This document shows, one piece after another, positions 4,662 through 52,576 of a stretch of 64,000 bases of DNA. Within the stretch, counting starts at the first letter, position 1; every line of letters starts with the position of its first letter. Origin of the DNA: an uncultured Lachnospiraceae bacterium (GTDB lineage Bacteria; Bacillota; Clostridia; Lachnospirales; Lachnospiraceae); contig CALWPC010000050.1 of the NCBI GenBank assembly GCA_944383325.1, positions 60,235 through 124,234 on the forward strand, read 5' to 3'. The notes below the pieces were generated by a model. The model was not told where the DNA came from, made no database searches, and was given only the letters and a program-made list of their open reading frames with translations. The position numbers and the translations under genes are program-made.

Positions 4662-5927
4662 GTGAGCATTGTTCATCGGTTTTTCAGAAAATGCGCCCAA
4701 TGGCGGAGAAGTCTGCCGGATGGATTTGTTCGTTTTTCCGACGGCATCAGCGGTCTCGGCCCCCGGAATCTGACTGCGGTAGGCATTATGGTAATCGGGT
4801 TCGGGGTTATTTTATATGCGGTGTTAATTCCGTTTTATAATGATTACCAGAATCGCAAGATGCTCGAGAAATTTCAGCTAGCACTTCAGGCGACACTGGG
4901 CGATTCGACAGGTGATGGAGATCTGTTGGACGGAGACAATTATAAAGGAAGCGGAATGACGGAGGCGGAATATAATGAGCTTTCGCCCGAGGAACAGGCC
5001 AAAATTGACGCGCAGTTGAAAAAGGAGCGGGAAATCCTTGCGACAATCGGAAGTCAGCAGATTATCGGAGTGCTCAAGATCGATGCGCTTGGTCTGGAGC
5101 ATGCCATTGTGGAAGGGACAGATTCGGTAAATATACGTGTGGCCGTCGGACATATCTCTGAATCGGATGAGATTGGAAGCTCGGGCAACTGCGCCATCGC
5201 AGGTCATCGCGGCGGTTACTACGGAGAGTTTTTTAAAAATATTGATCAGCTCAAAGAAGGGGATTTGATCGAAGTCACAGATTTGACCGGAACGGTGTAT
5301 ACATATTCGGTGTACAAGTCGGAAGTGGTCAAGCCGAGAGACTGGACGATTATTGAACCCGTAGAAGGACAGCGGACGCTGACGCTGCTTTCCTGTGAGG
5401 AAAACGGGACAATGCGCATTGCGGTGTGGGCGCGTATGATCGAAACGGTAGTCGACGATTCCGGTAATGAACAGGTACAGCTTGTGACGCCGGAGCCGAC
5501 CGAGGAACCGACGCCGACACCGGAGCCGACGCCGACACCGGAACCGACTGAGGAACCGACACCGGAGCCGACGCCGACGATTTCTCCTGTGAGAACCGTG
5601 GAAATTCGCAATATTTACGATCAGGTAGTTTATTCCGGCACGACAAATGAAAACGGAGAGTGGAGCGCGTCTCTGCCAAATGGCACTTATACGGTCATTT
5701 TGACGGACTCTGAGGGGAATCAGGAGTTTCAGACACTGACGGTCGGCGACGGAGTGACGAGCAGAGTGTGCGAGATTATTGTATCCGATGTGACGGGGCG
5801 CACAGTGTACGCCGGCAAGACCGATGAGAACGGAAACTGGTCGGTGGACTTGCCGCCCGGCTATTATATTATTACAATTACGGATGTGTTTGGAAATCAG
5901 ACGAGAGAAGAGCATATTGTGCAATAA
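4662..5927 (+). CDS. Sortase (non-class-C) with Pro-Thr linker and two C-terminal beta-sandwich repeats
   Basis: N-terminal TM. Sortase core motifs AIAGHRG, LTLLSC (catalytic Cys) and RIAVWARM (Arg). Then a PEPTEEPTPTPEPTPTPEPTEEPTPEPTPT linker and two ~50-aa repeats (G.T.ENG.WS..LP.G.Y..) resembling carboxypeptidase-regulatory/SdrD-B-like folds. RBS AAAGGGGAG precedes the GTG. Confidence 0.8.
   Translation: MSIVHRFFRKCAQWRRSLPDGFVRFSDGISGLGPRNLTAVGIMVIGFGVILYAVLIPFYNDYQNRKMLEKFQLALQATLGDSTGDGDLLDGDNYKGSGMTEAEYNELSPEEQAKIDAQLKKEREILATIGSQQIIGVLKIDALGLEHAIVEGTDSVNIRVAVGHISESDEIGSSGNCAIAGHRGGYYGEFFKNIDQLKEGDLIEVTDLTGTVYTYSVYKSEVVKPRDWTIIEPVEGQRTLTLLSCEENGTMRIAVWARMIETVVDDSGNEQVQLVTPEPTEEPTPTPEPTPTPEPTEEPTPEPTPTISPVRTVEIRNIYDQVVYSGTTNENGEWSASLPNGTYTVILTDSEGNQEFQTLTVGDGVTSRVCEIIVSDVTGRTVYAGKTDENGNWSVDLPPGYYIITITDVFGNQTREEHIVQ
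5490..5579 (+). repeat. Tandem CCGGAGCCGAC(G/C)-type coding repeat (Pro-Thr-Glu linker)
   Basis: Near-identical 18-24 nt units are visible in the DNA. They encode the PEPT-rich linker of the sortase. Confidence 0.8.
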
Positions 5928-6084
5928 AAAATATTACAATTTCGTAAATTTTTTTGTGAAATGTACCCAGAAAATACTTGCAATCACAGCGGGGGCATGC
6001 TATGATACAGTTGATACGATGAAATGGTTATAGGGATATAACCGAGCGTTCAAAATGACAATATCAAAGGGAAAAGGAGTTTTG

Positions 6085-40392: not shown

Positions 40393-40563
40393 AACAGTTT
40401 TAGGGATGGATCCGGCAAAGACAATATGACGAATGGTCATTTGACAGGATTGGAAAGGAATGGTAACATATTTATGAATAGGAACATTTTGCACGAAATC
40501 GCGGCAGAATGAGCCTGTCTATGATCGTCACAGTAACTATTAATGGGAAGGGGAAGAAGAGGT

Positions 40564-43131
40564 ATGAAGAAGAAAAGGGTATGGTCTGCGGTGTTGTCGG
40601 CGGCGCTTATTTTGACAAGCTTCAGTGCTGTTTGTATATCCGGCAAAACGGATGCCGACGCAGCGGATGTGCAGTTGGTTTCTGAGCCGGTGGTGACCGA
40701 ACTGCCGGGTACGAATCGAACCGTTTCGGAATATAATCCGAGTTTTCTCTCGGTGACCGGATTTGCCAAAGAGGCGGTCAGCGACAGAACAGATGCGATC
40801 GGAACGGACGCTTACCGGGTGGTCAATAATGAGGAAGAGTTTCTACAGGCACTGGACGACGCGAAATTGGGAAAAGTGCGTGTTATTGAAATTGCGGCCG
40901 ATTTGAATTTGGGATGGGATTCTCTGAGCGAGCAGGAGCGGGCGCATGACTGTATTTCGTCGTATGGATGGTCTCCGCTCGCGGAAGTTTACAATCCTTC
41001 CATTCTGGAAAATAATGTTTCTCAGCTTACGATCGCCGACACGCACGGTTTGACTATTTTTTCCCGAGCGGGAAATACGGTCAAGTATGCAGAGTGGAAA
41101 CTGCAGGGGACAAGCTCGGATATTGTGATCCGAAATCTGAAATTTGATGAAATGTGGAATTGGAGCGAGGCGGCTTCCACCAAAGAGTTGGGTTGGACGC
41201 TGCTGAAATTAAACGGCGTCAAGGGCGTGTGGATTGATCACTGTACCTTTACGCTTGGTTCGGACGGCAACGTGGATTCGGAAAACGGGGCGTCGAATAT
41301 GACGCAGTCATGGAATTCTTACAGCCTGCCGACGACGGAGACTCCCGGAACGGACAGTATGCTCTATAAAACCATTACATATCTGGAGTATCTGTATGGC
41401 CAGGGCAAATTATCGGATACGGGACGGTATAGTCTGCTGCGAGATCACGGGGCAAGCCCGCAACAGATTATGGCATATGAGGCATATCACCAAAAGCTGT
41501 GTCTCAATGGATCTGGTGACAAGGATTTTAAAGATGCAGAGGGCTATGAGGACGGCAATCAGAGGCTGCATCTGACGTTTGCCTACAATAAGGTGACGAA
41601 TATCGGAGCCAGGCTTCCGTTTATCCGTCAGGGAACGGCGCATTTAATTAATGTATATCTCGACAATTCAGGACATATGGCGCTTCACAATGATGAGAGT
41701 CTGCCGTTTGGGGAATATGGAGGATGGCAGCTCAACTGCGGCCTGGATGCGCACAATGGCGCCTGCGTCGGCGCAGATACCTGTGTTTTTAATGAGGCTA
41801 AAGCGCTTGTGGGCGTCGAACAGCAAGACGGCAAGGTGGAGTATGACAGCTCACAGTATCCGGATGGGTACAGTTATGCGGGAATGCAGGTTCCGTTTAA
41901 CTATTCGTTTGCAGGCGTATATAATCATATGCTCGCAGTCAATTCCAAGGTGACTTATAATGGTCAGACTTATACAGGCAGCAGTTGGGATAACAACGGA
42001 GATAATCTGTTTACCGTGGAATATACGTGGAGCGACAAATCGACGATCGGAAACTTTCACTGGTTTTCCTCTATCGATCATGCGGATGAGTATGTGAAAG
42101 GGGATGCGCCCCATATCCAGGATGAAAACGGCAATATCACGTATATTCCTTTTTCATTCAGCTACACCGATACGCTCCCGTATGCATATCAGGCGCTGCC
42201 TCTGGAGGATGTGGAGACGGTTATTTCTCAATATGCGGGCGCTTATGTGTATAATGAGGGGCCTGAATTTTGGCTTCGGACGGAATATGATGCAGACGAA
42301 GAGATTATGCCTGTAGATCAAAGTCAGGAAATCCTGGCAGAGGGGTTAAATATCAGCGAGGAAACGTTGGAGGTCAGAGTGGGCGAGGCGCGTCAGCTGA
42401 ATGCGGATGTGGTACCTTCCAATGCATCAAACCGGGAAGTGCTTTGGACTTCGTCAGACCCGGATTGTCTTCAAGTATTGGATTCCGGGCTGATCATTCC
42501 GCTGAGCGAGGGGACGGCGACGGTTACGGCGACGACTCAGGACGGAACGGAGATTGAAAAAACCTGCGTCGTTACCGTTTCGAATCCGGTGACTTCGATT
42601 GAGATTTTAGGAGCCCGCACGATGTACCTTGGAGATGAGAATACGCCTGCGGAAACGCTTCAGTTGCAAGCGATTGTGCTCCCGGAAGACGCCACGGATT
42701 CGTCTGTCATCTGGACGTCAAGTAATCCCAGTGCGCTTTCGGTAGATGAAAACGGTTTGCTGACCGCGTTAAAGAAAAGCAGCGGGGTCCGGATAACCTG
42801 CCAGTCTGTTTCCGATCCAAGTGTTTCTGCAACGGTTCGCATTGCTGTTAAAGAAGGAGTGAATCCCAATCCTTCCGCGGAACCGAGTCCAAGTCCCGAG
42901 CCGCCTGTATACGGCGATATTGATGACGACGGTTATGTGACGGCGGCGGATGCACTGTGTGCGCTTCGCCATGCGGCGCAGTTGACTGAGCTAGAGGGTA
43001 CTGCCTTTTTGGCGGCGGATGTAAACGGCGATCAGCAGATTACAGCGGCGGATGCATTGTATATCTTGCAGAAAGCAGCGCAGATGATTGATACGTTTCC
43101 GGTAGAAATTACGAAGAGCTCCGATATTTAG
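40564..43131 (+). CDS. Secreted PL1-like pectate lyase-fold protein with two Big_2 domains and a C-terminal dockerin
   Basis: Signal peptide after GGGAAGGGGAAG. Lyase motifs VIRNLKF, GVWIDHCTF, GARLPFIRQGTAHLINVYL. Two Big_2 repeats (ARQLNADVVPSNASNREVLWTSSDP..; LQLQAIVLPEDATDSSVIWTSSNP..). Dockerin repeats GDIDDDGYVTAADAL and DVNGDQQITAADAL. Confidence 0.8.
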   Translation: MKKKRVWSAVLSAALILTSFSAVCISGKTDADAADVQLVSEPVVTELPGTNRTVSEYNPSFLSVTGFAKEAVSDRTDAIGTDAYRVVNNEEEFLQALDDAKLGKVRVIEIAADLNLGWDSLSEQERAHDCISSYGWSPLAEVYNPSILENNVSQLTIADTHGLTIFSRAGNTVKYAEWKLQGTSSDIVIRNLKFDEMWNWSEAASTKELGWTLLKLNGVKGVWIDHCTFTLGSDGNVDSENGASNMTQSWNSYSLPTTETPGTDSMLYKTITYLEYLYGQGKLSDTGRYSLLRDHGASPQQIMAYEAYHQKLCLNGSGDKDFKDAEGYEDGNQRLHLTFAYNKVTNIGARLPFIRQGTAHLINVYLDNSGHMALHNDESLPFGEYGGWQLNCGLDAHNGACVGADTCVFNEAKALVGVEQQDGKVEYDSSQYPDGYSYAGMQVPFNYSFAGVYNHMLAVNSKVTYNGQTYTGSSWDNNGDNLFTVEYTWSDKSTIGNFHWFSSIDHADEYVKGDAPHIQDENGNITYIPFSFSYTDTLPYAYQALPLEDVETVISQYAGAYVYNEGPEFWLRTEYDADEEIMPVDQSQEILAEGLNISEETLEVRVGEARQLNADVVPSNASNREVLWTSSDPDCLQVLDSGLIIPLSEGTATVTATTQDGTEIEKTCVVTVSNPVTSIEILGARTMYLGDENTPAETLQLQAIVLPEDATDSSVIWTSSNPSALSVDENGLLTALKKSSGVRITCQSVSDPSVSATVRIAVKEGVNPNPSAEPSPSPEPPVYGDIDDDGYVTAADALCALRHAAQLTELEGTAFLAADVNGDQQITAADALYILQKAAQMIDTFPVEITKSSDI

Positions 43132-43164
43132 GAATAATACAATTATTTATTGACACGTATAAAG

Positions 43165-43217
43165 ACTGATATGCGAAGGCAACATAAACAGAGCTAACGC
43201 ATATCAGTTTTTTTTTG
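43165..43217 (+). terminator. Strong rho-independent terminator after the lyase gene
   Basis: ACTGATATGCG ... CGCATATCAGT perfect 11-bp stem followed by a run of 9 T. Confidence 0.8.
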
Positions 43218-43298
43218 AAAAGCATGTTTTTTGGGAATAATGATGAGGTGACTTGGCATGAATATGGATTAAAAAAATAAAATTGAGAGGTAAAGCAG

Positions 43299-44171
43299 AT
43301 GAGAGAAAGTATGGAATCGGATCAGAAAATCATCCGGCCGGAGTCGGTAAAAGCGTTTGAGGAGTATTTGGTGGAACGAGAAAACTCGTCGGCGACGATC
43401 GAGAAGTATTTAAGAGATGTCAGGACGTTTCTTCGTTATATGGGAGCGGATGGCGTTATGCGTAAGGATGTTTTGCTAGCGTATAAAAGTTGGCTTTTAG
43501 AACATTACAGCGTAAACAGTGTCAATTCGATGCTAGTCGCGCTCAATCAGTTTCTGACCTTTCTGGAGTTGGGGAGAATGAGACTGAAGCGGGTAAAAAT
43601 TCAGACGCAGCATCTGCGTCCGGCGGGGAGAGATCTGGGAAAAGGAGATTTTCAGAAACTGGTGCGGTGCGCCAGAGCGTCGGGAAGCGAGCAGACGGCG
43701 ATGATTATGGAGACGATTGGCGCAACAGGCGTTCGGGTCAGTGAACTAAAGTTTTTTCGTGTCGAAAATGTTCGAAGCGGTATGATTCGCGTGCAGAATA
43801 AAGGAAAGTACAGAATGGTACTGCTCCCCAAATTGCTGCAGAAAAAACTGTTGCTGTATACAAAAAAGTATGGAATTTACTCAGGGGTCATTTTTCGGAC
43901 AAGAAGCGGCAGAGCAAAGGACCGCTCGAATATCTGGAAAGATATGAAACGTGCGGCGCAAATGGCGGGAGTAAATACGGATAAAGTGTTTCCGCATAAT
44001 TTCCGCCATCTGTTTGCCCGTACCTTTTATAAACAGACAAAAAATTTAATTAACCTTGCAGATATTTTGGGACACAGCAGTGTGGATGTCACAAGAATCT
44101 ATGCTTCAGAAGGAATAGCGGAATGGCAGAAAAATCTTGAGCGGGTCAACCTGTTGGAAGTGACCACATAA
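43299..44171 (+). CDS. Tyrosine site-specific recombinase (phage-integrase family), candidate invertase
   Basis: SAM-like N-domain (SATIEKYLRDVRTFLRY). Catalytic ATGVRVSEL (Arg), HNFRHLFA (H-x-x-R), LGHSSVDVTRIY (His..Tyr). The stop codon lies inside the left recombination-site-like repeat. Confidence 0.85.
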   Translation: MRESMESDQKIIRPESVKAFEEYLVERENSSATIEKYLRDVRTFLRYMGADGVMRKDVLLAYKSWLLEHYSVNSVNSMLVALNQFLTFLELGRMRLKRVKIQTQHLRPAGRDLGKGDFQKLVRCARASGSEQTAMIMETIGATGVRVSELKFFRVENVRSGMIRVQNKGKYRMVLLPKLLQKKLLLYTKKYGIYSGVIFRTRSGRAKDRSNIWKDMKRAAQMAGVNTDKVFPHNFRHLFARTFYKQTKNLINLADILGHSSVDVTRIYASEGIAEWQKNLERVNLLEVTT

Positions 44172-44187
44172 TAATAATTATGTGGTA
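44166..44187. repeat. Left inverted repeat (IR-L) / recombinase core-site-like palindrome
   Basis: CACATAATAATAATTATGTGGT is the exact reverse complement of 44475-44496. Internally it has CCACATA and TATGTGG arms around the asymmetric spacer ATAATAAT. Confidence 0.85.
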
Positions 44188-44474
44188 TATGAGTCGATAC
44201 ATAATAAAAAACAGCTGAACTGTTTTTAGCTTATCACCTCAATATGCAAATGTCAACAACAAATCCGTATGAAAAAGACACATGTTTCTTTCCCGAAGTG
44301 GTAACATGCGATAAATAGCCGGAATCTTCAGTTTATTCAAACCGGATTTTTGTTTTGTATTTATATTTACAGGCAAAAACAAACAGAGCGTCAAATATAT
44401 GACATGTCAGTGCTTCTTCGTACCAAAAAACTGGAGCTGTTTTTGCGTATTCTTTTTCAATCCATGCAGAAGCG
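44188..44474. promoter_or_regulatory. Candidate invertible segment (~287 bp) between IR-L and IR-R1
   Basis: It is non-coding and bounded by 22-bp perfect inverted repeats. It contains leftward-facing promoter-like hexamers (TTGACA-17-TAAGCT and TTGAAT-17-TATTTA on the minus strand) and an A/T-flanked hairpin at 44208-44228. Confidence 0.6.
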
Positions 44475-44496
44475 ACCACATAATTATTATTATGTG
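44475..44496. repeat. Right inverted repeat (IR-R1)
   Basis: ACCACATAATTATTATTATGTG is a perfect 22-bp inverse of IR-L. Its spacer is ATTATTAT, the opposite polarity to IR-L. Confidence 0.85.
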
Positions 44497-44505
44497 TTTT
44501 TTTTT

Positions 44506-44528
44506 ACTACGTAATTATTATTATGTGG
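44506..44528. repeat. Second, degenerate right-hand site (IR-R2)
   Basis: ACTACGTAATTATTATTATGTGG matches 21 of 23 positions of the inverse of IR-L, in the same polarity as IR-R1. A T-run separates it from IR-R1. Confidence 0.7.
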
Positions 44529-44574
44529 CGTATGTGGGCAGGAGCTGACAGTGATATATAAGGGAGTGGTAAGC

Positions 44575-47500
44575 ATGTATGGTTTGAAAAGACGCATCCT
44601 GGCAGGGATTCTCATACTGATTTTTGTGCTGCCGCTGAACGGCAGTTTTGCTGTCGCTGAAGGACAGGCAGAAGAAAGGGACAACACGGAGGTGTCTTCG
44701 TGGGAGTGGGTTGATAAAAATGAGATGTTGCAGTGGTCCGAGGAACTGCACTGTTGGGGCTTGGGAATACCGGGAGCCAGTGAGGACAATCCGATGACCG
44801 CCAAGCAACTGGCTTTGCTGCTGCCCGCACAGATCAGTGCCCGGACGACCGACGGCCAGACGGTAACTGCGGATCTTTTATGGGATCTGTCGGAAATTCC
44901 GCAGCAGGGTGTTTGGTCGGGAACCTATTTGGTTACCGCCGAAGTTTCCGGGGAGTATCGGATGGCGGAGGATGCAGAACCGCTAGAAGTCAATGTGGAG
45001 TTTGGCGGAGCGCAGGTGTTGTCAGAACTGCCGTCGGGAGATCCGCAGTATTCGGATTACTTGGTCAATGGAGTTTCTCCGAATGGAACGACCATACATC
45101 TGTTTGACTACTGGGTGAATGAGTCGGGCGGTCAGAGTGCCTCTGATCACAGCAATCCGTCACAGTTTCAAAATCAGGGAATTAACGACGATCATGCGCT
45201 GCTATTTGGGCAGGGGATGGATAGTGCATACGGCGCATGGAATCAGTGGACAGGGAATGCGTCGCCGCGCACCGGTATTGTGGCAAGCAAGCTGTCTGAC
45301 GACGGCTATCCCTGCTTAAACGGATTAGATACCAGTAATGTTAACCTCATAAAAAATCGGGATGGCAGTGAGTCACTGGCTTATTTGTTTGATCCGGACC
45401 GGAGGCACAAAGGAAAACAATCTTTTGAGGATGTGCAGGGACTGCTTAAGGTCGATGAGGATGGATATTATACCTACGATTGTCAGAAAAATTATGCGGT
45501 GTATTATCAGGAGACCAAGTCGTTCATTCTGTATGCCTACCCGGGCGTTCGCCAGGGAGGTCAGTCGCCGGACGGACAATTTTTTCCTTTTAATGCGGCA
45601 GTAAATATTGATACAAATCAGAAATTTGTAAACAGTAATCTTCAGTCCACTGATGATTCAATCAATCATTATTTCGGGCTGACGATGTCGACTCGGTTTA
45701 TTCAGCAATATGGCGGATATGTCGATGAAAAACATAGCGCGCCTGTGACTTATGAATTCGGCGGCGACGACGATGTGTGGGTATTTATCGACGGCACTCT
45801 CGTGGCTGATTTGGGCGGTATTCATAATCGTGCAAGCTTGGAGATTGATTTTTCTACAGGCCTTATACAGGTGAACGGAACGAATAACGGATATATTGGG
45901 CGCAAGCTCGAGTATAATTCGGACACGCTTCCCGACAATACTTATCATACTCTCGATTTTTTCTATCTGGAACGAGGCAATGTCGATTCCAATATGACGC
46001 TGAAATATAATCTGGTGACGATTCCTGAAAGTTCGGTTATCAAAGTTGACCAGGCCGGGGATCCGGTGACTGGAGCCGAGTTTGCACTGTATGATGCAGA
46101 CGATCCGGATCAGCTAATCGCGACCGGAACAACAGGACGTGACGGTGCATTTGTTTTTATTGACGAAAACGATTATCCGATTACGATCGCACAACTCTAT
46201 GCGGAGTATGGGCCAGGTCAGATGAATGGTGAGCCTGATTTGATTTTGCGGGAGACAAAAGTTCCCCCGGGATACCGGTCGGCAGAAACGGCGATGGAGC
46301 TTCGGTTTCATGAGTCCGATAATGGGGAAGTTTTGCTCTTGTCCAATAACCAATGGGATACAGGCGCTTACGCTATGTCGAAAGTGACTGCTACGGCGCC
46401 GGATTCTATTCGATCGGAGGATGGAACGAAAGAGGTTGATTTAAAAAACGTGACCAATCCGCAGATCTTTGCGGTCGTGTTTCAGAAACAGGAAAGCGGT
46501 GACTGGTTTCCGCTCTACGGCGACCCGATCAGTGGGTGGTCGGTGACTGATGGCAGTTCATGGGCCGATATTCGGGAAGCGGCGGAAAAGAATCCTTATT
46601 TCTTTCAGCTAGCGAGCAATGGCTCCTATCAGGTGGAAGTGGAAAATTTGCCGGGCGATATTACATCGTACTATTATGTGTGCGGTGACGAACAAACGGC
46701 CAAATATACGGTGGCCTACTATTATACGACAGCCGGAAGCACGGAACAGATTAACGGGTCGAATACATGGAGAATTGACTCGGACGCCAAGGAGTCGCAG
46801 TATCAGTTCGACAGGGTGTTTTCTGTGAATCTGTATGTTCCGAATATTAAAAATCGGTTGTTTGTCCAAAAAGTAGATGAAGAAAAGCAGCCGGTGAATG
46901 GCGCGGAGTTTTCGCTTTACCGGGCAGGGGATGTCGACGTGAATGAAAGCGGTTTCACGATCCATACCGGTGCGAATGCATATGATCAGCTGACAACGGC
47001 TGCGATTTCCGGAAGCATCAGCCTGGATGGAGGAGGCGTATTTCCTGCAGAAAACGGGATTTTGGAATGCGGGGAATACTTCCTGATTGAGACAGGTGTA
47101 CCGGAATGGTATCAGGGCAATGAGACGGCAATCCGGATTGTTGTGGATTCTACCGGTGTTTATGCAGATGCAGGAGACGGGGATGACGGCGTGTCGGTGC
47201 TGAGGGGCGTAGGCTCTGTTGTGAAAAGTATGGTGCAGTTTGCGGCGGACGATCAGGTGGACTTAACGCTGAATACCATTCGGGCGGGATCTGAATCGGG
47301 GACTTACACGGACAGGACACTGACGTGGAATGACGATACCGAGTGGGAGAACGAGGAAACACTTTTGCACCTTCAGTATTCCAATCAGTATCAGGTGCTC
47401 GACTACCGGTTAGAAGGCGGATCAGGAAGCGAAGCGAATACGATCAATGAACTGACCGTAGAAACAGTCAGCGGATGGTCAAGACTGAGCATTAGACAAT

Positions 47501-49008
47501 GTTTTCAGCATGACGAGAGCTCGGATAGCACTTTAAAAACGGATTTGCAGAATCAGGATCTCACCAATCTGTTTTCCGGTCTTGCCGTCGTCCGGGTGGA
47601 GAATCAGAAGGTTGGAAACTTGACGGTTCAAAAAGAGGTGTTGGGAGAAGAGGCCCCTGAGGCGGCGTCGTTTACTTTTCAGCTTTCGCTGAGCGACAGT
47701 GTGGGCGCGCCGCTTACGCAATCTTATCAGGCAACCAGGTATCTGACAGACGGCGGGCAGGAAAATATGACGGTGAAAAACGGCGACACGTTCCAGTTAA
47801 AGGATGGTGAAAAAATCGTTATTTTGGATCTTCCGGCGGGCGCGGACTATCAGGTTGAGGAAATCAATATACCATCGGGATTTACGCCGAGTGTGCTTCA
47901 GAATCAGGACGTTGATGCCAAGGACGGAAATATGGCTTTGGGCAGTATTTCGCATCGTATGCAGGAGAGCGTCACGTTTTATAATGCTTATTCCAGTGAT
48001 GCCGTGGCAGTGCTGAATGGGGTGAAGCGTCTTAGCGGACGGATGATTGGACAGGAGGATGTTTTTGAATTTCAGTTGTCTGCTGCTGATGATGCGACCT
48101 CGGAAGCCATTGAGGCGGGAGATGTAGTGCTTGGCGAGGGCGCTGATTTCGTTTCGGTAACCGGAGACGGCAGCAGTGAGACGGCGAGTTTCTCATTTCC
48201 CGAAGTACGCTTCCGAGAGCCGGGACAGTATTGTTTTTATATTGCAGAGGTGGTGCCGGCAGAGCATCCGGGAATGACCTATGATACACACAAAACAAAG
48301 GTCACGGTGAATGTTTTACGGGACGAAGCCGGTGGTCTTATGAGAGCTGTTGTTTCTTATGATAATACGGGTGCTCCGATAGCGGATGACCGGGAGGTTA
48401 CCGACCGGGCATCGTTTACAAATCAAATTACAGGTGAGTTTTCTTTCCGAAAGGTAGACAGGGGGCATCAGCCGGTAGAAGGTGCGCGGTTTGCACTGTA
48501 CCGCCTGGACTGTGAAAATACGGATCATGATCACAGCGGCGAAAACGATGAGCTTTTGGTGGGAGCAAACGGAGCTTTTGAGGAAGCATATCTGTATTCG
48601 GAATGTTGGACATTGATACAGACCGAGATGTCGGCGCCTGATACCGGACTTGTGCAATTTTCGGATATTCCCATTGTCGGAGAGTATCGTTTAGTAGAAG
48701 TGTTGGTTCCCGACGGCTTTATGAATCCGGGCGGACAGTGGAAAGTCGAGTACAGTGATCTCGACGGCAAATTCGGTCCGAAAGCCGGCGGCGACGCCAG
48801 TGTGGGCAATCCGCCTGCCATTGGAGTAGATGAAGAGGGCGTATATTATATTTTCAATTATCGTCCGAGCGCATTGCCGTTTGCGGGGAACAAAGGAATT
48901 GTTTGTTTCATGGCGGTTGGCGGCGTCATTATGGCAGCCGGGGGCACCGGATTGCTGTGCGCTATTCGAAAAAGGCGCCGGTTGATGCACAGAGCTGATC
49001 TTGACTGA
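44575..49008 (+). CDS. Large sortase-anchored pilus tip adhesin (fibro-slime/PA14-like domain + multiple Cna-B/SpaA-type isopeptide domains)
   Basis: ATG at 44575 follows AAGGGAG. Signal peptide [30 protein letters not shown]. Fibro-slime block [23 protein letters not shown]...[10 protein letters not shown]. Repeated Cna-B signatures ([68 protein letters not shown]). C-terminal LPFAG, hydrophobic helix and RKRRR. Confidence 0.85.
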   Translation: [1477 protein letters not shown]

Positions 49009-49106: not shown

Positions 49107-50726
49107 ATGACAACGAACACAAAAACCGCATTTTATAAAATGTGGGCAGTATGCCTGGCATTGGCGCTAGTGCTGTCGATGAGCATCACGGCATTTGCCA
49201 GTATTACGCAAGATACAACCGGTCAATTTACCGTAACCGGGTTTGATACGGATCCGTCACTCAAAATAGAAGTGTCTGCGTTTCAAATTATTACAGTCAA
49301 TGTAGATAATCAAGCCGGACAGCCTGCTTATCCGATGTACACGTGGAATGCGAACGTAGCCGCATGGATGCGGACGAATGGGTATGAGCAGTACATTAAT
49401 GATACTCTTGGGAAAAATGCGGTAGCCGATCAGTTTGATCCTGAGCAAATAGCAGCTAAAGATATGACTGTCTTTCTGGAAAAGATAACTGCGGCTATCA
49501 AGGCGGGAACGATTTTATTAACTGCAACTAAAACGGTTGAAGCGTCTGAGGGCAGCGCAGTCTTTACAGAGATGCCGATGGGAGAGTATTTGATTACCGC
49601 CAAAGGAGGCGTGAAGATTTATCAGCCTACCACGGCCGAACTGGTGCCCCGGGAAACGGAAGGAGAATGGGAGATCGTCGGGGAAGAGTATGAGATGAAA
49701 AGCACGGATCCTGGAATTACCGAAAAGGAAGGCTCTACGGAGGAAGGTGATCAGACCGTTGCAATCGGCGATACGGTCAATTATATGCTGACAGTTCGCG
49801 TGCCCTCTTATCCGGCAGATGCGTCGCACACAAAATTTGAAGTCAGCGACAGCATGAGCAGCGGCCTGACGTTTGACGGAGCCGATTCGATTCAGGTTTA
49901 TAGTGACAAGGAAAAAACAAATCCTATATCTGACGACAATTATACTGTGACTGTTCCTTCAGAAACACGGACATTCTCCATTGCGTTTAAAGACCAATTT
50001 ACGAGAAACACAGAGCTTACGACGATTTATATTGTATATTCGGCGACGGTCAACCCTTTTGCTTTTGAAGAGGATGCTCTCGGCAACCAGGCGTTCCTGG
50101 GATATAGCAATGATCCGTATACAGAGTCGGATTATGAAACGCCGGGACCTGAGGAGGATGTATATACATATGGCATTGCGCTGACAAAGATTGACAAGGA
50201 TCATAATTCTGTCACAGCAGCAGACGGGGATAAACGCGCGCAGTTTACTCTTTCCGATAATGGCACTGCACTGACGTTTACCGAGACGGAGACGGACGGG
50301 GTTTATCGCTATGATGCAAACGGTTCGACGACCTTGGAGGTAGCTGCAGACGGCACACTGCTGCTTCAGGGGTTGGATGAGGGCACCTATATTTTAAAAG
50401 AGACGCAGGCTCCGGAAGGATATGTTCTTCCGACGGGTGAAATCACGATTGTCATTACGGATCAGGAAGACGGCGCGGCCGATGGAATGATTGATGCAGC
50501 GAATGTGACAAGCAGCGGAACAATTACAATTTGTGATCCGTCGGTGGTTGATAATGCCAAGAACGTGGTTGATTTTCATGTGGTGAATACAAGCTCGGAG
50601 GACGCGGGCTTTACGCTTCCTGTCACAGGCGGCATGGGTACGCTGATTTTTACGGTGGCCGGTGTGCTGCTGATGGCGGGCGCTGTAGTAATGGTTGTCC
50701 TTGCGAAAAAGAAACAGGTACAATAA
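49107..50726 (+). CDS. LPXTG-anchored major (backbone) pilin, SpaH/EbpB-like
   Basis: Signal peptide. Pilin-motif-like VRVPSYPADASHTK. E-box YILKETQAPEGY. Sorting signal LPVTG, hydrophobic helix and KKKQ. Confidence 0.8.
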   Translation: MTTNTKTAFYKMWAVCLALALVLSMSITAFASITQDTTGQFTVTGFDTDPSLKIEVSAFQIITVNVDNQAGQPAYPMYTWNANVAAWMRTNGYEQYINDTLGKNAVADQFDPEQIAAKDMTVFLEKITAAIKAGTILLTATKTVEASEGSAVFTEMPMGEYLITAKGGVKIYQPTTAELVPRETEGEWEIVGEEYEMKSTDPGITEKEGSTEEGDQTVAIGDTVNYMLTVRVPSYPADASHTKFEVSDSMSSGLTFDGADSIQVYSDKEKTNPISDDNYTVTVPSETRTFSIAFKDQFTRNTELTTIYIVYSATVNPFAFEEDALGNQAFLGYSNDPYTESDYETPGPEEDVYTYGIALTKIDKDHNSVTAADGDKRAQFTLSDNGTALTFTETETDGVYRYDANGSTTLEVAADGTLLLQGLDEGTYILKETQAPEGYVLPTGEITIVITDQEDGAADGMIDAANVTSSGTITICDPSVVDNAKNVVDFHVVNTSSEDAGFTLPVTGGMGTLIFTVAGVLLMAGAVVMVVLAKKKQVQ

Positions 50727-50766
50727 ACGGCATAAAATAAAAATATATAAATGGGTTTTATCTGGT

Positions 50767-51627
50767 ATGACAAAAAACAGAATCAGGAAAAAGAAAAACC
50801 CGTGGGTATTCCTGGCGCCCCTGCTGATTTTTGCAGTAGGCGCCGGGATTTTCATTTATCCTGCGGCAAGTAATTTTCTGGCGGAGCGCAATCAGCAGCA
50901 TATAATACACACTTATCAGAAAACCGTCGAGGAAACGAGCCGGGACGTGCTCGATAACGCATGGGCTGAGGCAATTACTTACAACGAAAATCTGGCGGGG
51001 GATCCGGTTCATGATCCTTTTGTCATGGGAAGCGGTTATGTCCTTCCAGAAAATTATGAGGAAGTGTTAAATATAGACGGTGATGGAGTGATGGGTTATA
51101 TCGAAATTCCGAAAATCGGCGTTTTGCTTCCGATTTATCACGGAACGGATGAAGATGTGCTTGCAAAGGGCGCAGGTCATCTGGATGTGACGGCGCTCCC
51201 GATTGGGGGAGAGGGATTGCATTCGGTGATCAGCGCTCACCGGGGATTGCCAAGCGCTCAATTATTTACCAGGTTGGATGAGCTAGAGATCGGGGATGTC
51301 TTTTATGTTCATGTTCTGGATGCCGTTCTTGCGTATGAGGTGGATCAGACGGAGGTGATTTTGCCGGAGGAACTCGGTTTGTTGGAGCCGGAGGACGGCA
51401 GAGATCTGATGACGCTTCTGACATGTACACCGTACGCGGTAAATACCCACCGCCTGCTTGTGCGGGGAGAGAGGGTTCCTTATGAAGAAACGGTTGCGGA
51501 GGACATCAATGAAAGCAGGACAGTGGATGCGGACAAATCCTGGCGAAAGGAGTATTTGTATTCAGCTATAGCCGGCGCGGTGTTTCTTAGCGTGTGCATT
51601 GTTGTTCTAAAAAGAAGAAAAAAGTAA
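50767..51627 (+). CDS. Class C (pilin-polymerising) sortase 1
   Basis: N-terminal TM. HIIHTYQ lid region, VISAHRG, TLLTCTPYAVNTHRLLVRGERV, and a C-terminal TM anchor, typical of class C. Confidence 0.9.
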   Translation: MTKNRIRKKKNPWVFLAPLLIFAVGAGIFIYPAASNFLAERNQQHIIHTYQKTVEETSRDVLDNAWAEAITYNENLAGDPVHDPFVMGSGYVLPENYEEVLNIDGDGVMGYIEIPKIGVLLPIYHGTDEDVLAKGAGHLDVTALPIGGEGLHSVISAHRGLPSAQLFTRLDELEIGDVFYVHVLDAVLAYEVDQTEVILPEELGLLEPEDGRDLMTLLTCTPYAVNTHRLLVRGERVPYEETVAEDINESRTVDADKSWRKEYLYSAIAGAVFLSVCIVVLKRRKK

Positions 51628-51676
51628 AAGAAAAACGCAGATCTTCTACGGCATCGGAACAGAGGGGAACGTGGAG

Positions 51677-52576
51677 ATGAAAAAAAACGTACTTTGGATG
51701 ACAGCAGGAATCTTGTTTTTTGCCGGTATACTTGTACTGGCATTTCCGACTGCGGTAAATTTGGCATATCAATATCGGAGCCAGAAGACGATCGTACAAT
51801 TTTGTGACGAGAATGCTGCGGATTCCGACACGGCGGACGATACGCTTTTTTTGCAGATGGAGGAGTATAACTTGGCGATCTATCAAAATCAGCAAAAGGA
51901 TCTCTGCGATGCATGGAGTTATCAGCAAAATATGTTTCATTTTGACGCCGCAGGCCTCGCCGACGATATGATCGGTTATCTCGTCATTGAAGCTATGGAT
52001 GTGCAAATCCCGCTGTATATCGGCGCCAGTAATGCCAATATGAGTAAGGGCGCGGCTGTTTTGGGTCAGACCAGTATGCCGATCGGCGGAGAGAATACAA
52101 ATTGTGTGATTGCCGCGCACAGAGGGTATGGAAGTGTCCCTATGTTCCGAAACATTGAGGCGCTTGAGTACGGTGATCAGGTGGTGATTACAAATTTGTG
52201 GGACACCCTGACCTATGAAGTAGTGAAAAGTATTGTGATTGATCCGGACGATATTGATGCGGTCAAGATTATTCCGGGGCAGGATTTGGTGACGCTGATT
52301 ACCTGTCATCCGTATACAAAAAATGTACAGCGGTATGTCGTGTATTGCCGGCGGGTCAGCGACGGGGAAGAAAATCAACAGCTAGTGCAGGCAACAGAGG
52401 CGCTTCCGGAAATTGCGGAATCGATTCATGGAGTGGAATATGTTTCGTCAGAAAAGGATATTCAGTTGGAAGAGCAGATGTATACGATCCGTATTTTGAC
52501 TGTCGCGGCGTCCTGCTTCGCGTTGCTGCTGTGGTTTTTTGTAAAAAAAATCAGACGGCATTTCAGACGGATGTAA
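51677..52576 (+). CDS. Class C sortase 2
   Basis: N-terminal TM. VIAAHRG, TLITCHPYTKNVQRYVVYCRRV, C-terminal TM. The ATG at 51677 follows GGGGAACGTGGAG. Confidence 0.9.
   Translation: MKKNVLWMTAGILFFAGILVLAFPTAVNLAYQYRSQKTIVQFCDENAADSDTADDTLFLQMEEYNLAIYQNQQKDLCDAWSYQQNMFHFDAAGLADDMIGYLVIEAMDVQIPLYIGASNANMSKGAAVLGQTSMPIGGENTNCVIAAHRGYGSVPMFRNIEALEYGDQVVITNLWDTLTYEVVKSIVIDPDDIDAVKIIPGQDLVTLITCHPYTKNVQRYVVYCRRVSDGEENQQLVQATEALPEIAESIHGVEYVSSEKDIQLEEQMYTIRILTVAASCFALLLWFFVKKIRRHFRRM

Follow-up and report, generated by a model that had tools for sequence, protein, structure and literature searches.

The window analysed here, a stretch of 64,000 nucleotides (nt) from an uncultured Lachnospiraceae bacterium (GenBank assembly GCA_944383325.1, contig CALWPC010000050.1, positions 60,235–124,234), carries a gene for a tyrosine recombinase (43299–44171), followed by a short non-coding segment enclosed by inverted repeats and by an operon for a sortase-dependent pilus. 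A preliminary description of this DNA, made from the sequence alone, had proposed that the segment between the repeats is an invertible switch (inverton) placed upstream of the pilus operon.

The product of the gene at 43299–44171 (+ strand, 290 aa) is an Xer-like tyrosine recombinase, presumed to be the invertase of the system. The Pfam analysis identified the PF00589 domain (Phage_integrase, 66.1 bits vs. a cut-off of 27.1) together with the N-terminal SAM-like domain PF02899 (31 bits), and the sequence can be aligned end to end with the XerC-like, XerD and XerA structures. In the phmmer alignment to XerD (1a0p) the residues R146, K168/K170, H233, R236, H259 and Y268 occupy the catalytic positions, which we take to be R148, K172, H244, R247, H270 and Y279 in the XerD numbering, and with the complete set of catalytic residues in place the original assignment of this gene to the tyrosine recombinases was confirmed. 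The scores fall far below the NCBIfam equivalog cut-offs (XerA: 123 vs. 220, XerD: 97 vs. 330, XerC: 90 vs. 335), as well as below that of the FimB/FimE-type invertase model NF007371 (20.3 bits vs. 222), and therefore the protein is a simple Xer-like tyrosine recombinase outside those named families. Its closest named relative comes from a Lachnospiraceae metagenome-assembled genome (MAG).

A repeat search combined with direct reading of 43200–44700 revealed a perfect 22-nt inverted repeat, CACATAATAATAATTATGTGGT at 44165–44186 and ACCACATAATTATTATTATGTG at 44475–44496, each copy of which is a near-palindrome, with the central bases alone distinguishing one from the other. The preliminary description had reported this exact repeat with correct coordinates of the right arm, but with the left arm (given as 44166–44187) shifted by one position. 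Written as putative core sites (none with an assigned strand), the two copies correspond to the left site L (44164–44185, CCACATAA-TAATAA-TTATGTGG) and the inner right site R1 (44476–44497, CCACATAA-TTATTA-TTATGTGt), whose inverted match to L is perfect over 22 nt. There is also a third, imperfect copy, the outer right site R2 (ACTACGTAATTATTATTATGTGG, 44506–44528; ActACgTAA-TTATTA-TTATGTGG), which has the polarity of the right copy, is 92% complementary to L over 24 nt, and is separated from R1 by a run of nine T (T9, 44497–44505). Both sites of the layout proposed earlier were found, but the locus has three, R2 lying within the end coordinate of that description and being left undescribed there. 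The pattern CCACATAATWATWATTATGTGG, with up to 3 mismatches allowed, matches the 64 kb at these three sites only and none of 100 shuffled versions. The repeat pairs enclose 288 bp (22 nt, perfect) and 317 bp (24 nt, 92%). The stop codon of the recombinase gene (TAA, 44169–44171) sits within the left arm of site L, and the distance from the end of the right repeat (44496) to the ATG of the adhesin gene (44575) is 79 nt, both exactly as first described. T9 and the adjoining ACTACGTAATTATTATTATGTG form a 31-bp module (44497–44527), which some strains lack and others carry on the left side as its reverse complement. The Rfam search of 43000–45000 identified no riboswitch or other RNA family, and a literature search with the site sequence returned primer matches only. 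A pair of sub-terminal 20-nt inverted repeats (44207–44226 and 44425–44444, 80% complementary) lies 20–30 nt inside the core sites, and a similar AAAAACAGCT... sequence follows the left site in either orientation of the segment; it may be an accessory site or a remnant of a longer repeat.

The segment that would be inverted by recombination between L and R1 (44186–44475, about 288 bp) is non-coding and carries a predicted promoter of the sigma70 type on the minus strand (44228–44256), with the −35 element TTGACA (44256–44251), a 17-nt spacer ending in TGA and the −10 element TAAGCT (44233–44228). As it stands in the window, this promoter is directed leftward, toward site L, antisense into the 3' end of the recombinase gene and away from the pilus operon. 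The promoter scan detected no promoter-like site between the right sites and the ATG (44497–44574), in agreement with the preliminary description; the leader (44529–44574, + strand) has a ribosome-binding site, GGGAG, at 44562–44566. As the segment promoter faces away and none precedes the ATG, the copy in the window is thus in the OFF orientation.

The operon downstream was found to have the four genes ascribed to it. The first encodes the 1477-aa tip adhesin (44575–49008, + strand) with SpaA, DUF7601 and FctA isopeptide domains and a fibro-slime domain, the second the backbone pilin (49107–50726, + strand, 539 aa) with the GramPos_pilinBB domain and an LPVTG anchor, and the remaining two are class C, i.e. 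pilin-polymerising, sortases (50695–51627 and 51671–52576, both + strand; NF033745: 270 and 195 bits, respectively, vs. a cut-off of 160). Such composition, with isopeptide domains in the adhesin and the pilin, an LPVTG anchor and class C sortases, identifies a sortase-dependent Gram-positive pilus. The tip adhesin has no canonical LPxTG motif; its C-terminus comprises ALPFAG, a hydrophobic stretch and a basic tail.

Homologous cassettes and their orientation

Family loci were gathered by searching species-representative genomes and metagenomes with the recombinase sequence. The homologs (40–66% identity) come from Blautia, Oscillospiraceae, C. symbiosum, C. transplantifaecale, Pseudoflavonifractor and one Erysipelotrichales genome, and the recombinase family comprises at least 7,996 proteins at E ≤ 1e-30 in the protein search. 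Nearly every homologous locus has a pair of inverted repeats 0–60 nt after the recombinase stop codon, enclosing 146–428 bp (mostly 200–300). Comparison of 14 systems revealed that the arms nnACATAA / TTATGTnn are invariant and that the central 6 bp takes ten different sequences (TAATAA, CAATTA, CACTAA, CAATAA, TGATGA, TAACAA, CGTCAA, TGTTAA, TTTGCC and TCCGTA), with the polarity of the centre opposite at the two ends of each locus. The core sites of tyrosine recombinases consist of protein-binding arms around a crossover region that needs only to match that of its partner; the combination of conserved arms and a variable centre is the signature of such a site. The asymmetric centre and the opposite polarity of the two copies had been recognized previously, but the family comparison favours 8-nt arms and a 6-bp variable centre over the 7-nt arms and 8-bp spacer proposed then. 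A sub-clade of the family (L016, L019, L026 and L032) has different arms, ACAACGGA / TCCGTTGT, so the arm sequence co-varies with the enzyme, and this co-variation of arms with recombinase clade would fit a putative dependence of the inversion on the adjacent recombinase.

Every segment of the family has one predicted promoter, with a TTGAca −35 element, a 17-nt spacer usually ending in TGn and a TAnnnT −10 element, directed outward through one of the repeats, and the −10 element ends 57–85 nt (mostly 67–73 nt) from the outer edge of that repeat plus 10 nt. The promoter faces the cargo gene in L011, L041, L012, L033, L087 and L088. The first three of these have recombinases 60–62% identical to that of the window and VWA adhesins or polysaccharide genes downstream, and the promoter regions of L011 and L060 are recognizably homologous and opposite in orientation. 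The cargo consists mostly of surface structures, i.e. VWA adhesins, BspA-LRR, SLH and collagen/cohesin proteins, and polysaccharide genes.

The preliminary description had called for related genomes with the segment in the opposite orientation, and orthologous cassettes were indeed found both ways, in three groups, with the breakpoints precisely at the repeats. In the C. symbiosum group (25-nt repeat TACCACATAATGATGATTATGTGGT, 205 bp enclosed) 4 contigs have one orientation and 6 the other, with identical flanks. The loci L015 and L025 are likewise opposite in orientation to L028 and L030. The third, P0112, is linked to a pilus-type adhesin: all contigs of this group encode an identical recombinase, 63% identical to that of the window, with an adhesin of 3,600–3,900 aa and the VWA/FctA/DUF7601 composition encoded downstream. 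In two of its contigs (L087 and L088) the promoter lies beside the right repeat (ON), and in three others (L089, L090 and L091) the same 33-bp repeats enclose the segment as its exact reverse complement (OFF).

Several observations on the family stand apart from the question of orientation. An ATATGTA(T) motif, found in the window as ATTATGTAT between the −10 element and site L (44197–44205, minus strand), recurs, at varying distances, in the corresponding interval of about 13 of 17 family members (besides the window, in L014, L016, L017, L019, L020, L022, L023, L026, L032, L011 and L041), and is kept even in the sub-clade with the ACAACGGA/TCCGTTGT arms; it could serve as an accessory site for binding or as an element of the leader. 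Non-surface cargo comprises a TIR/TPR protein, a LytTR response regulator, a MatE transporter and transketolase subunits (the loci listed being L020 5750–7747, L023 5311–6048, L022 5624–6952 and L015 6246–8061), which suggests phase variation of defence, regulation or metabolism. One genome of an uncultured member of the Oscillospiraceae (MGYG-HGUT-01286) has at least five paralogous recombinase cassettes (L016, L018, L019, L021 and L026), with a BspA-LRR protein (L016) and an SLH/VWA/LRR protein (L026) among the cargos. In L019 the right site is duplicated, and a partial second recombinase gene follows downstream (5227–6009).

The 31-bp module in contigs of the same species

The same-species set comprises 26 other contigs, which encode the same recombinase or a variant from its 90%-identity cluster, with a few amino-acid differences. 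The species is absent from the GTDB representative genomes, in which the best match to the recombinase is 62% identical. The number and the side of the 31-bp module differ within this set, and the configurations, counted with the window included, are as follows (the copy number of 31-bp tandems being error-prone in short-read assemblies): L1/R2, the arrangement of the window with a right-hand module, in 12 sequences; L2/R1, with the module on the left as the exact reverse complement, in 5; L2/R2 in 2; L3/R1 and L1/R3 in one each; and L1/R1, with no module, in 2.

In sequences with a left-hand module, the left region has the form CCACATAATAATAATTACGTAGT-A8/9-CACATAATAATAATTATGTGG, and the hybrid outer-left site CCACATAATAATAATTACGTAGT fits exactly the product predicted for an L × R2 crossover. 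Variants typical of a lineage move together with the module: T8A-ACTACG on the right (L052 and L055) corresponds to CGTAGT-TA8 on the left (L053 and L056) in the same background of single-nucleotide polymorphisms (SNPs), and the same correspondence between right and left was found for L057 vs. L054 and L058. For the module to cross the segment with the orientation of the segment unchanged, two inversions are needed, the outer one and then the inner one, via an intermediate with the promoter ON. The relocation of the module within lineages therefore indicates that recombination at the sites has been repeated and recent in this species, and either directional bias or selection would return the population consensus to OFF.

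The homopolymer of the module varies as well (T8, T9 and T10, or A7, A8 and A9, sometimes with a change of a flanking A/T; 44497–44505 in the window, and L003, L048, L052, L057 and L081), which may reflect either true slippage or noise in the assemblies. Nearly all the same-species contigs encode an intact recombinase. Two public copies are frameshifted or truncated, L085 (GCA_047239605.1) and P0018. The frameshift of P0129/L085 was considered as a sign of a locked switch and rejected, as the indels are all single-base deletions in homopolymers, typical of long-read error. A variant with a C-terminus longer by 6 aa (P0128) was likewise rejected as a product of the flipped state; it is encoded on a 1.1-kb contig that ends in unrelated sequence. 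In the variant of contig L059 (Logan SRR33520758, 1134 nt) the recombinase ends with ...LLEVEGVPKVMK in place of ...LLEVTT, and the contig departs from the locus exactly at the left site, continuing with 30 nt of unrelated sequence; this is probably a chimeric contig end. Two Logan contigs that stop in the left site (L050 and L051) do not necessarily reflect mixed orientation, as tandem 31-bp modules confronted with k=31 explain the break.

The switch reading and its alternatives

We consider it highly likely that the locus is a functional recombinase-driven invertible promoter that controls the sortase-pilus operon, captured here in the OFF state. The sites, the intact recombinase, the conserved position of the promoter, the flipped orthologous cassettes and the relocation of the module within the species are all seen in the sequences; the catalytic role of this recombinase, the activity of the promoter, the positions of cleavage and the switching of the pilus to ON by inversion are inferred. 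The idea of a switch upstream of the pilus operon is supported by the recombinase, the segment promoter, the flipped orthologs and the moving module, with the reservation that the locus itself has been seen only in the OFF state.

In the proposed mechanism the 290-aa recombinase would bind the arms (CC)ACATAA / TTATGT(GG) of L and of either R1 or R2, and strand exchange would take place within the asymmetric centre of 6–8 bp. The polarity of the centre is opposite on the two sides, so the intervening DNA would be inverted and not excised, as the preliminary description had predicted. In the OFF state the lone outward promoter would be aimed at the 3' end of the recombinase gene, leaving the pilus operon promoterless, and in the ON state the inverted promoter would lie about 40 nt inside the right site and read through into the adhesin-pilin-sortase operon. 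With either right-hand site available to L as a partner, inversion could take two nested forms (about 288 bp and about 319 bp), of which the outer would carry the 31-bp module to the opposite side. The predicted flipped junctions are GAAGTGACCACATAATAATAATTATGTGGTCGCTTCTGCATGG on the left, with or without the CGTAGT-A9 module, and CGACTCATATACCACATAATTATTATTATGTG on the right, followed by the T-run or by GCGTATG.

The nested sites also raise the question of a two-bit switch with four states, in which the inner inversion would flip the promoter and the outer one would in addition move the site-plus-T9 module, which on either side would act as a weak terminator or insulator toward transcripts that exit the segment there. 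The states would be full ON, attenuated ON, OFF with antisense transcription into the recombinase gene, and OFF with the antisense transcription blocked; if so, antisense transcription, blocked or not, would feed back on the switching rate. We regard this elaboration as rather unlikely. Both OFF states (module right and module left) are present in the same lineages, with 0–2 modules, and R1 with T9 folds into a hairpin of 8 bp with a U9 tail (−7.1 kcal/mol, z −4.2); in context, R1 pairs with R2 instead. The terminator idea is further weakened by the low stability of the hairpin and by the duplicated site of L019, the only other one of this kind, which shows no fold above background.

Several observations weigh against the invertible promoter itself. 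The −10 element TAAGCT matches the consensus in 3 of 6 positions (with TG at the extended −10) and the promoter falls under the threshold of the generic promoter scan; the two other pilus-linked ortholog groups, P0033 and P0004, are all OFF; and none of the 26 other same-species contigs has the window locus in the ON orientation. The exact pattern of the flipped left junction had no matches in the JGI metagenome contigs either, which is uninformative as the species is absent there (best recombinase match 65%). Assemblies give the majority orientation only, and the contigs are not fully independent, some coming from the same studies; the all-OFF count therefore limits the switch model and does not contradict it.

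The uniform orientation of all 27 sequences of the species (the window and the 26 contigs), and likewise of P0033 and P0004, argues for a relic or an effectively locked switch, the sites of which once recombined, with the segment now fixed in OFF and the pilus silent or driven in some other way. This is improbable, though, since the module has changed sides in at least three separate lineages, within which the recombinases and the SNPs of the segment are the same or nearly so, few contigs have anything but an intact recombinase (the frameshift in L085 looking like a long-read error), and the P0112 ortholog with its pilus adhesin occurs in both states. Even less probable is that the number of modules (0–2) or the length of the T-run (T8–T10), and not the inversion of the promoter, is the main source of variation in phase or level. 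Both the module number and the length of poly-T/A do differ between contigs, and the R1-T9 hairpin with its U9 tail would fit such a role, but in the present orientation the leader that holds the module has no promoter upstream of it, most family members have no module and yet flip, homopolymer and tandem counts are error-prone in short-read assemblies, and the duplicated site of L019 forms no terminator fold.

Least probable of all, we find it hard to credit that the sites are static operators or RNA hairpins beside a housekeeping Xer protein or a mobile-element integrase with its att sites. Homologs are annotated as 'Tyrosine recombinase XerD' or 'integrase', and each site is able to form a hairpin; against this, the scores are far under the XerA/C/D equivalog cut-offs, the sites are inverted and about 290 bp apart with no genes enclosed, the cassette stands beside unrelated cargo in different genomes and in several paralogs in one of them (MGYG-HGUT-01286), and the enclosed DNA is precisely inverted in orthologs. 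A resolvase of chromosome dimers of the XerC/XerD/XerA kind was rejected, as paired inverted repeats and not a single dif lie beside the gene and the scores are under the cut-offs, and so was an integrative mobile element, there being no direct att repeats, L being inverted relative to R1 and R2, and only 288 bp of non-coding DNA lying in between.

Known systems and minor features of the locus

The paradigm for a switch of this layout is fimS, in which a tyrosine recombinase is encoded adjacent to an invertible element of about 300 bp that carries the promoter of a pilus operon and alternates between ON and OFF with a strong OFF bias. Its repeats are 9 bp long, two dedicated recombinases serve it with the aid of accessory IHF/Lrp sites, and its cargo is a chaperone-usher pilus. 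The likeness to fimS/FimBE noted earlier holds for the layout but not for the enzyme, as the recombinase of the window is Xer-like and far from the FimB/FimE family (20.3 bits vs. 222). Other differences are the repeats of 22–24 bp, the single enzyme with its stop codon in one of the sites, and the Gram-positive sortase pilus as the cargo. The RecV-dependent switches of Clostridioides difficile are alike in being short invertible elements served by a tyrosine recombinase in the Clostridia. RecV, however, serves several switches as the sole enzyme, its gene lying at a distance from them; the switch of cwpV operates via a terminator and not via promoter orientation, and the RecV-switch repeats are not known to be related in sequence to those described here. 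Each cassette here brings its own recombinase, which makes fimS the closer parallel in layout. The RecV-dependent elements (cwpV, flgB, cmrRST and pdcB) precede surface and motility genes (PMC3080850, PMC6837544, PMC9286219), and fimS/FimB/FimE of E. coli type 1 fimbriae was cited as the paradigm also for an invertible promoter of Streptococcus zooepidemicus (Holden et al. 2009, PMC2654543). In the latter case the recombinase SZO08550 is encoded adjacent to the LPXTG surface protein SZO08560, and reverse reads and RT-qPCR support the flipping (PMC2654543); that system differs from ours by its 10-bp repeats (GTAGACTTTA) enclosing about 115 bp, by a single surface protein as the cargo in place of a pilus operon, and by lineage. 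A sortase-dependent pilus of a gut commensal, Bifidobacterium breve, is known to be switched ON and OFF stochastically by replication slippage in a G-tract (PMC9187656), as opposed to the DNA inversion proposed here. The searchable literature yielded no report of an inverton in control of a sortase-dependent pilus.

The switch family itself has very probably been catalogued in gut Clostridia already, by Jin et al. 2025 (Microbiome, PMC11892184). According to that paper, inverton group 139 comprises 33 read-verified invertons in 17 Clostridia strains, is tightly linked to the tyrosine recombinase invertase group 35, and shifts in orientation with passage and with surface attachment (PMC11892184). 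Both group 139, so described, and the cassettes analysed here are short intergenic invertons beside a gene for a tyrosine-type recombinase in gut Clostridia, and the example from Clostridium sp. D5 given there (25-nt repeats enclosing 206 bp) matches the geometry of the C. symbiosum homolog (25 nt, 205 bp). By likeness of layout and geometry, the family of the window is probably inverton group 139 with invertase group 35. The sortase-pilus cargo, the nesting of three sites, the conserved arms with a variable centre and the anatomy of the promoter do not figure in that paper. The additions made here are the pilus cargo, the nested three-site layout, and the family-level anatomy of sites and promoter, which allows ON and OFF to be called from sequence.

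Sortase-dependent pili are major adhesion and colonisation factors of Gram-positive gut bacteria. The family anatomy provides a rule for searching metagenomes, by which such a switch combines an Xer-like recombinase, repeats of the form ACATAA-N6-TTATGT and a promoter some 40 nt inward from one of them, and the same rule lets each switch be called ON or OFF from an assembly. Members of this very large family (at least 7,996 proteins) are routinely mis-named XerD or integrase, and such annotations probably conceal many phase-variable surface genes in Lachnospiraceae and Oscillospiraceae.

Directly after the recombinase gene lies a weak hairpin, AAAAACAG-CUGAA-CUGUUUUU (44207–44227, + strand; −5.9 kcal/mol, z −1.8), which may be its terminator and which overlaps the predicted transcript start of the switch promoter on the opposite strand (near 44221 in the OFF state). 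The adhesin gene starts at GTG 44551 (1485 aa) in public gene calls; the ATG at 44575 is preceded, at 9 nt, by a better ribosome-binding site (GGGAG) and yields a typical signal peptide. The gene 5' of the recombinase (40543–43131) encodes a protein of 862 aa with two Big_2 domains, a weak match to pectate lyase and a type I dockerin, the last being unusual for a Lachnospiraceae-like genome, and is followed by a terminator-like hairpin at 43161–43212.

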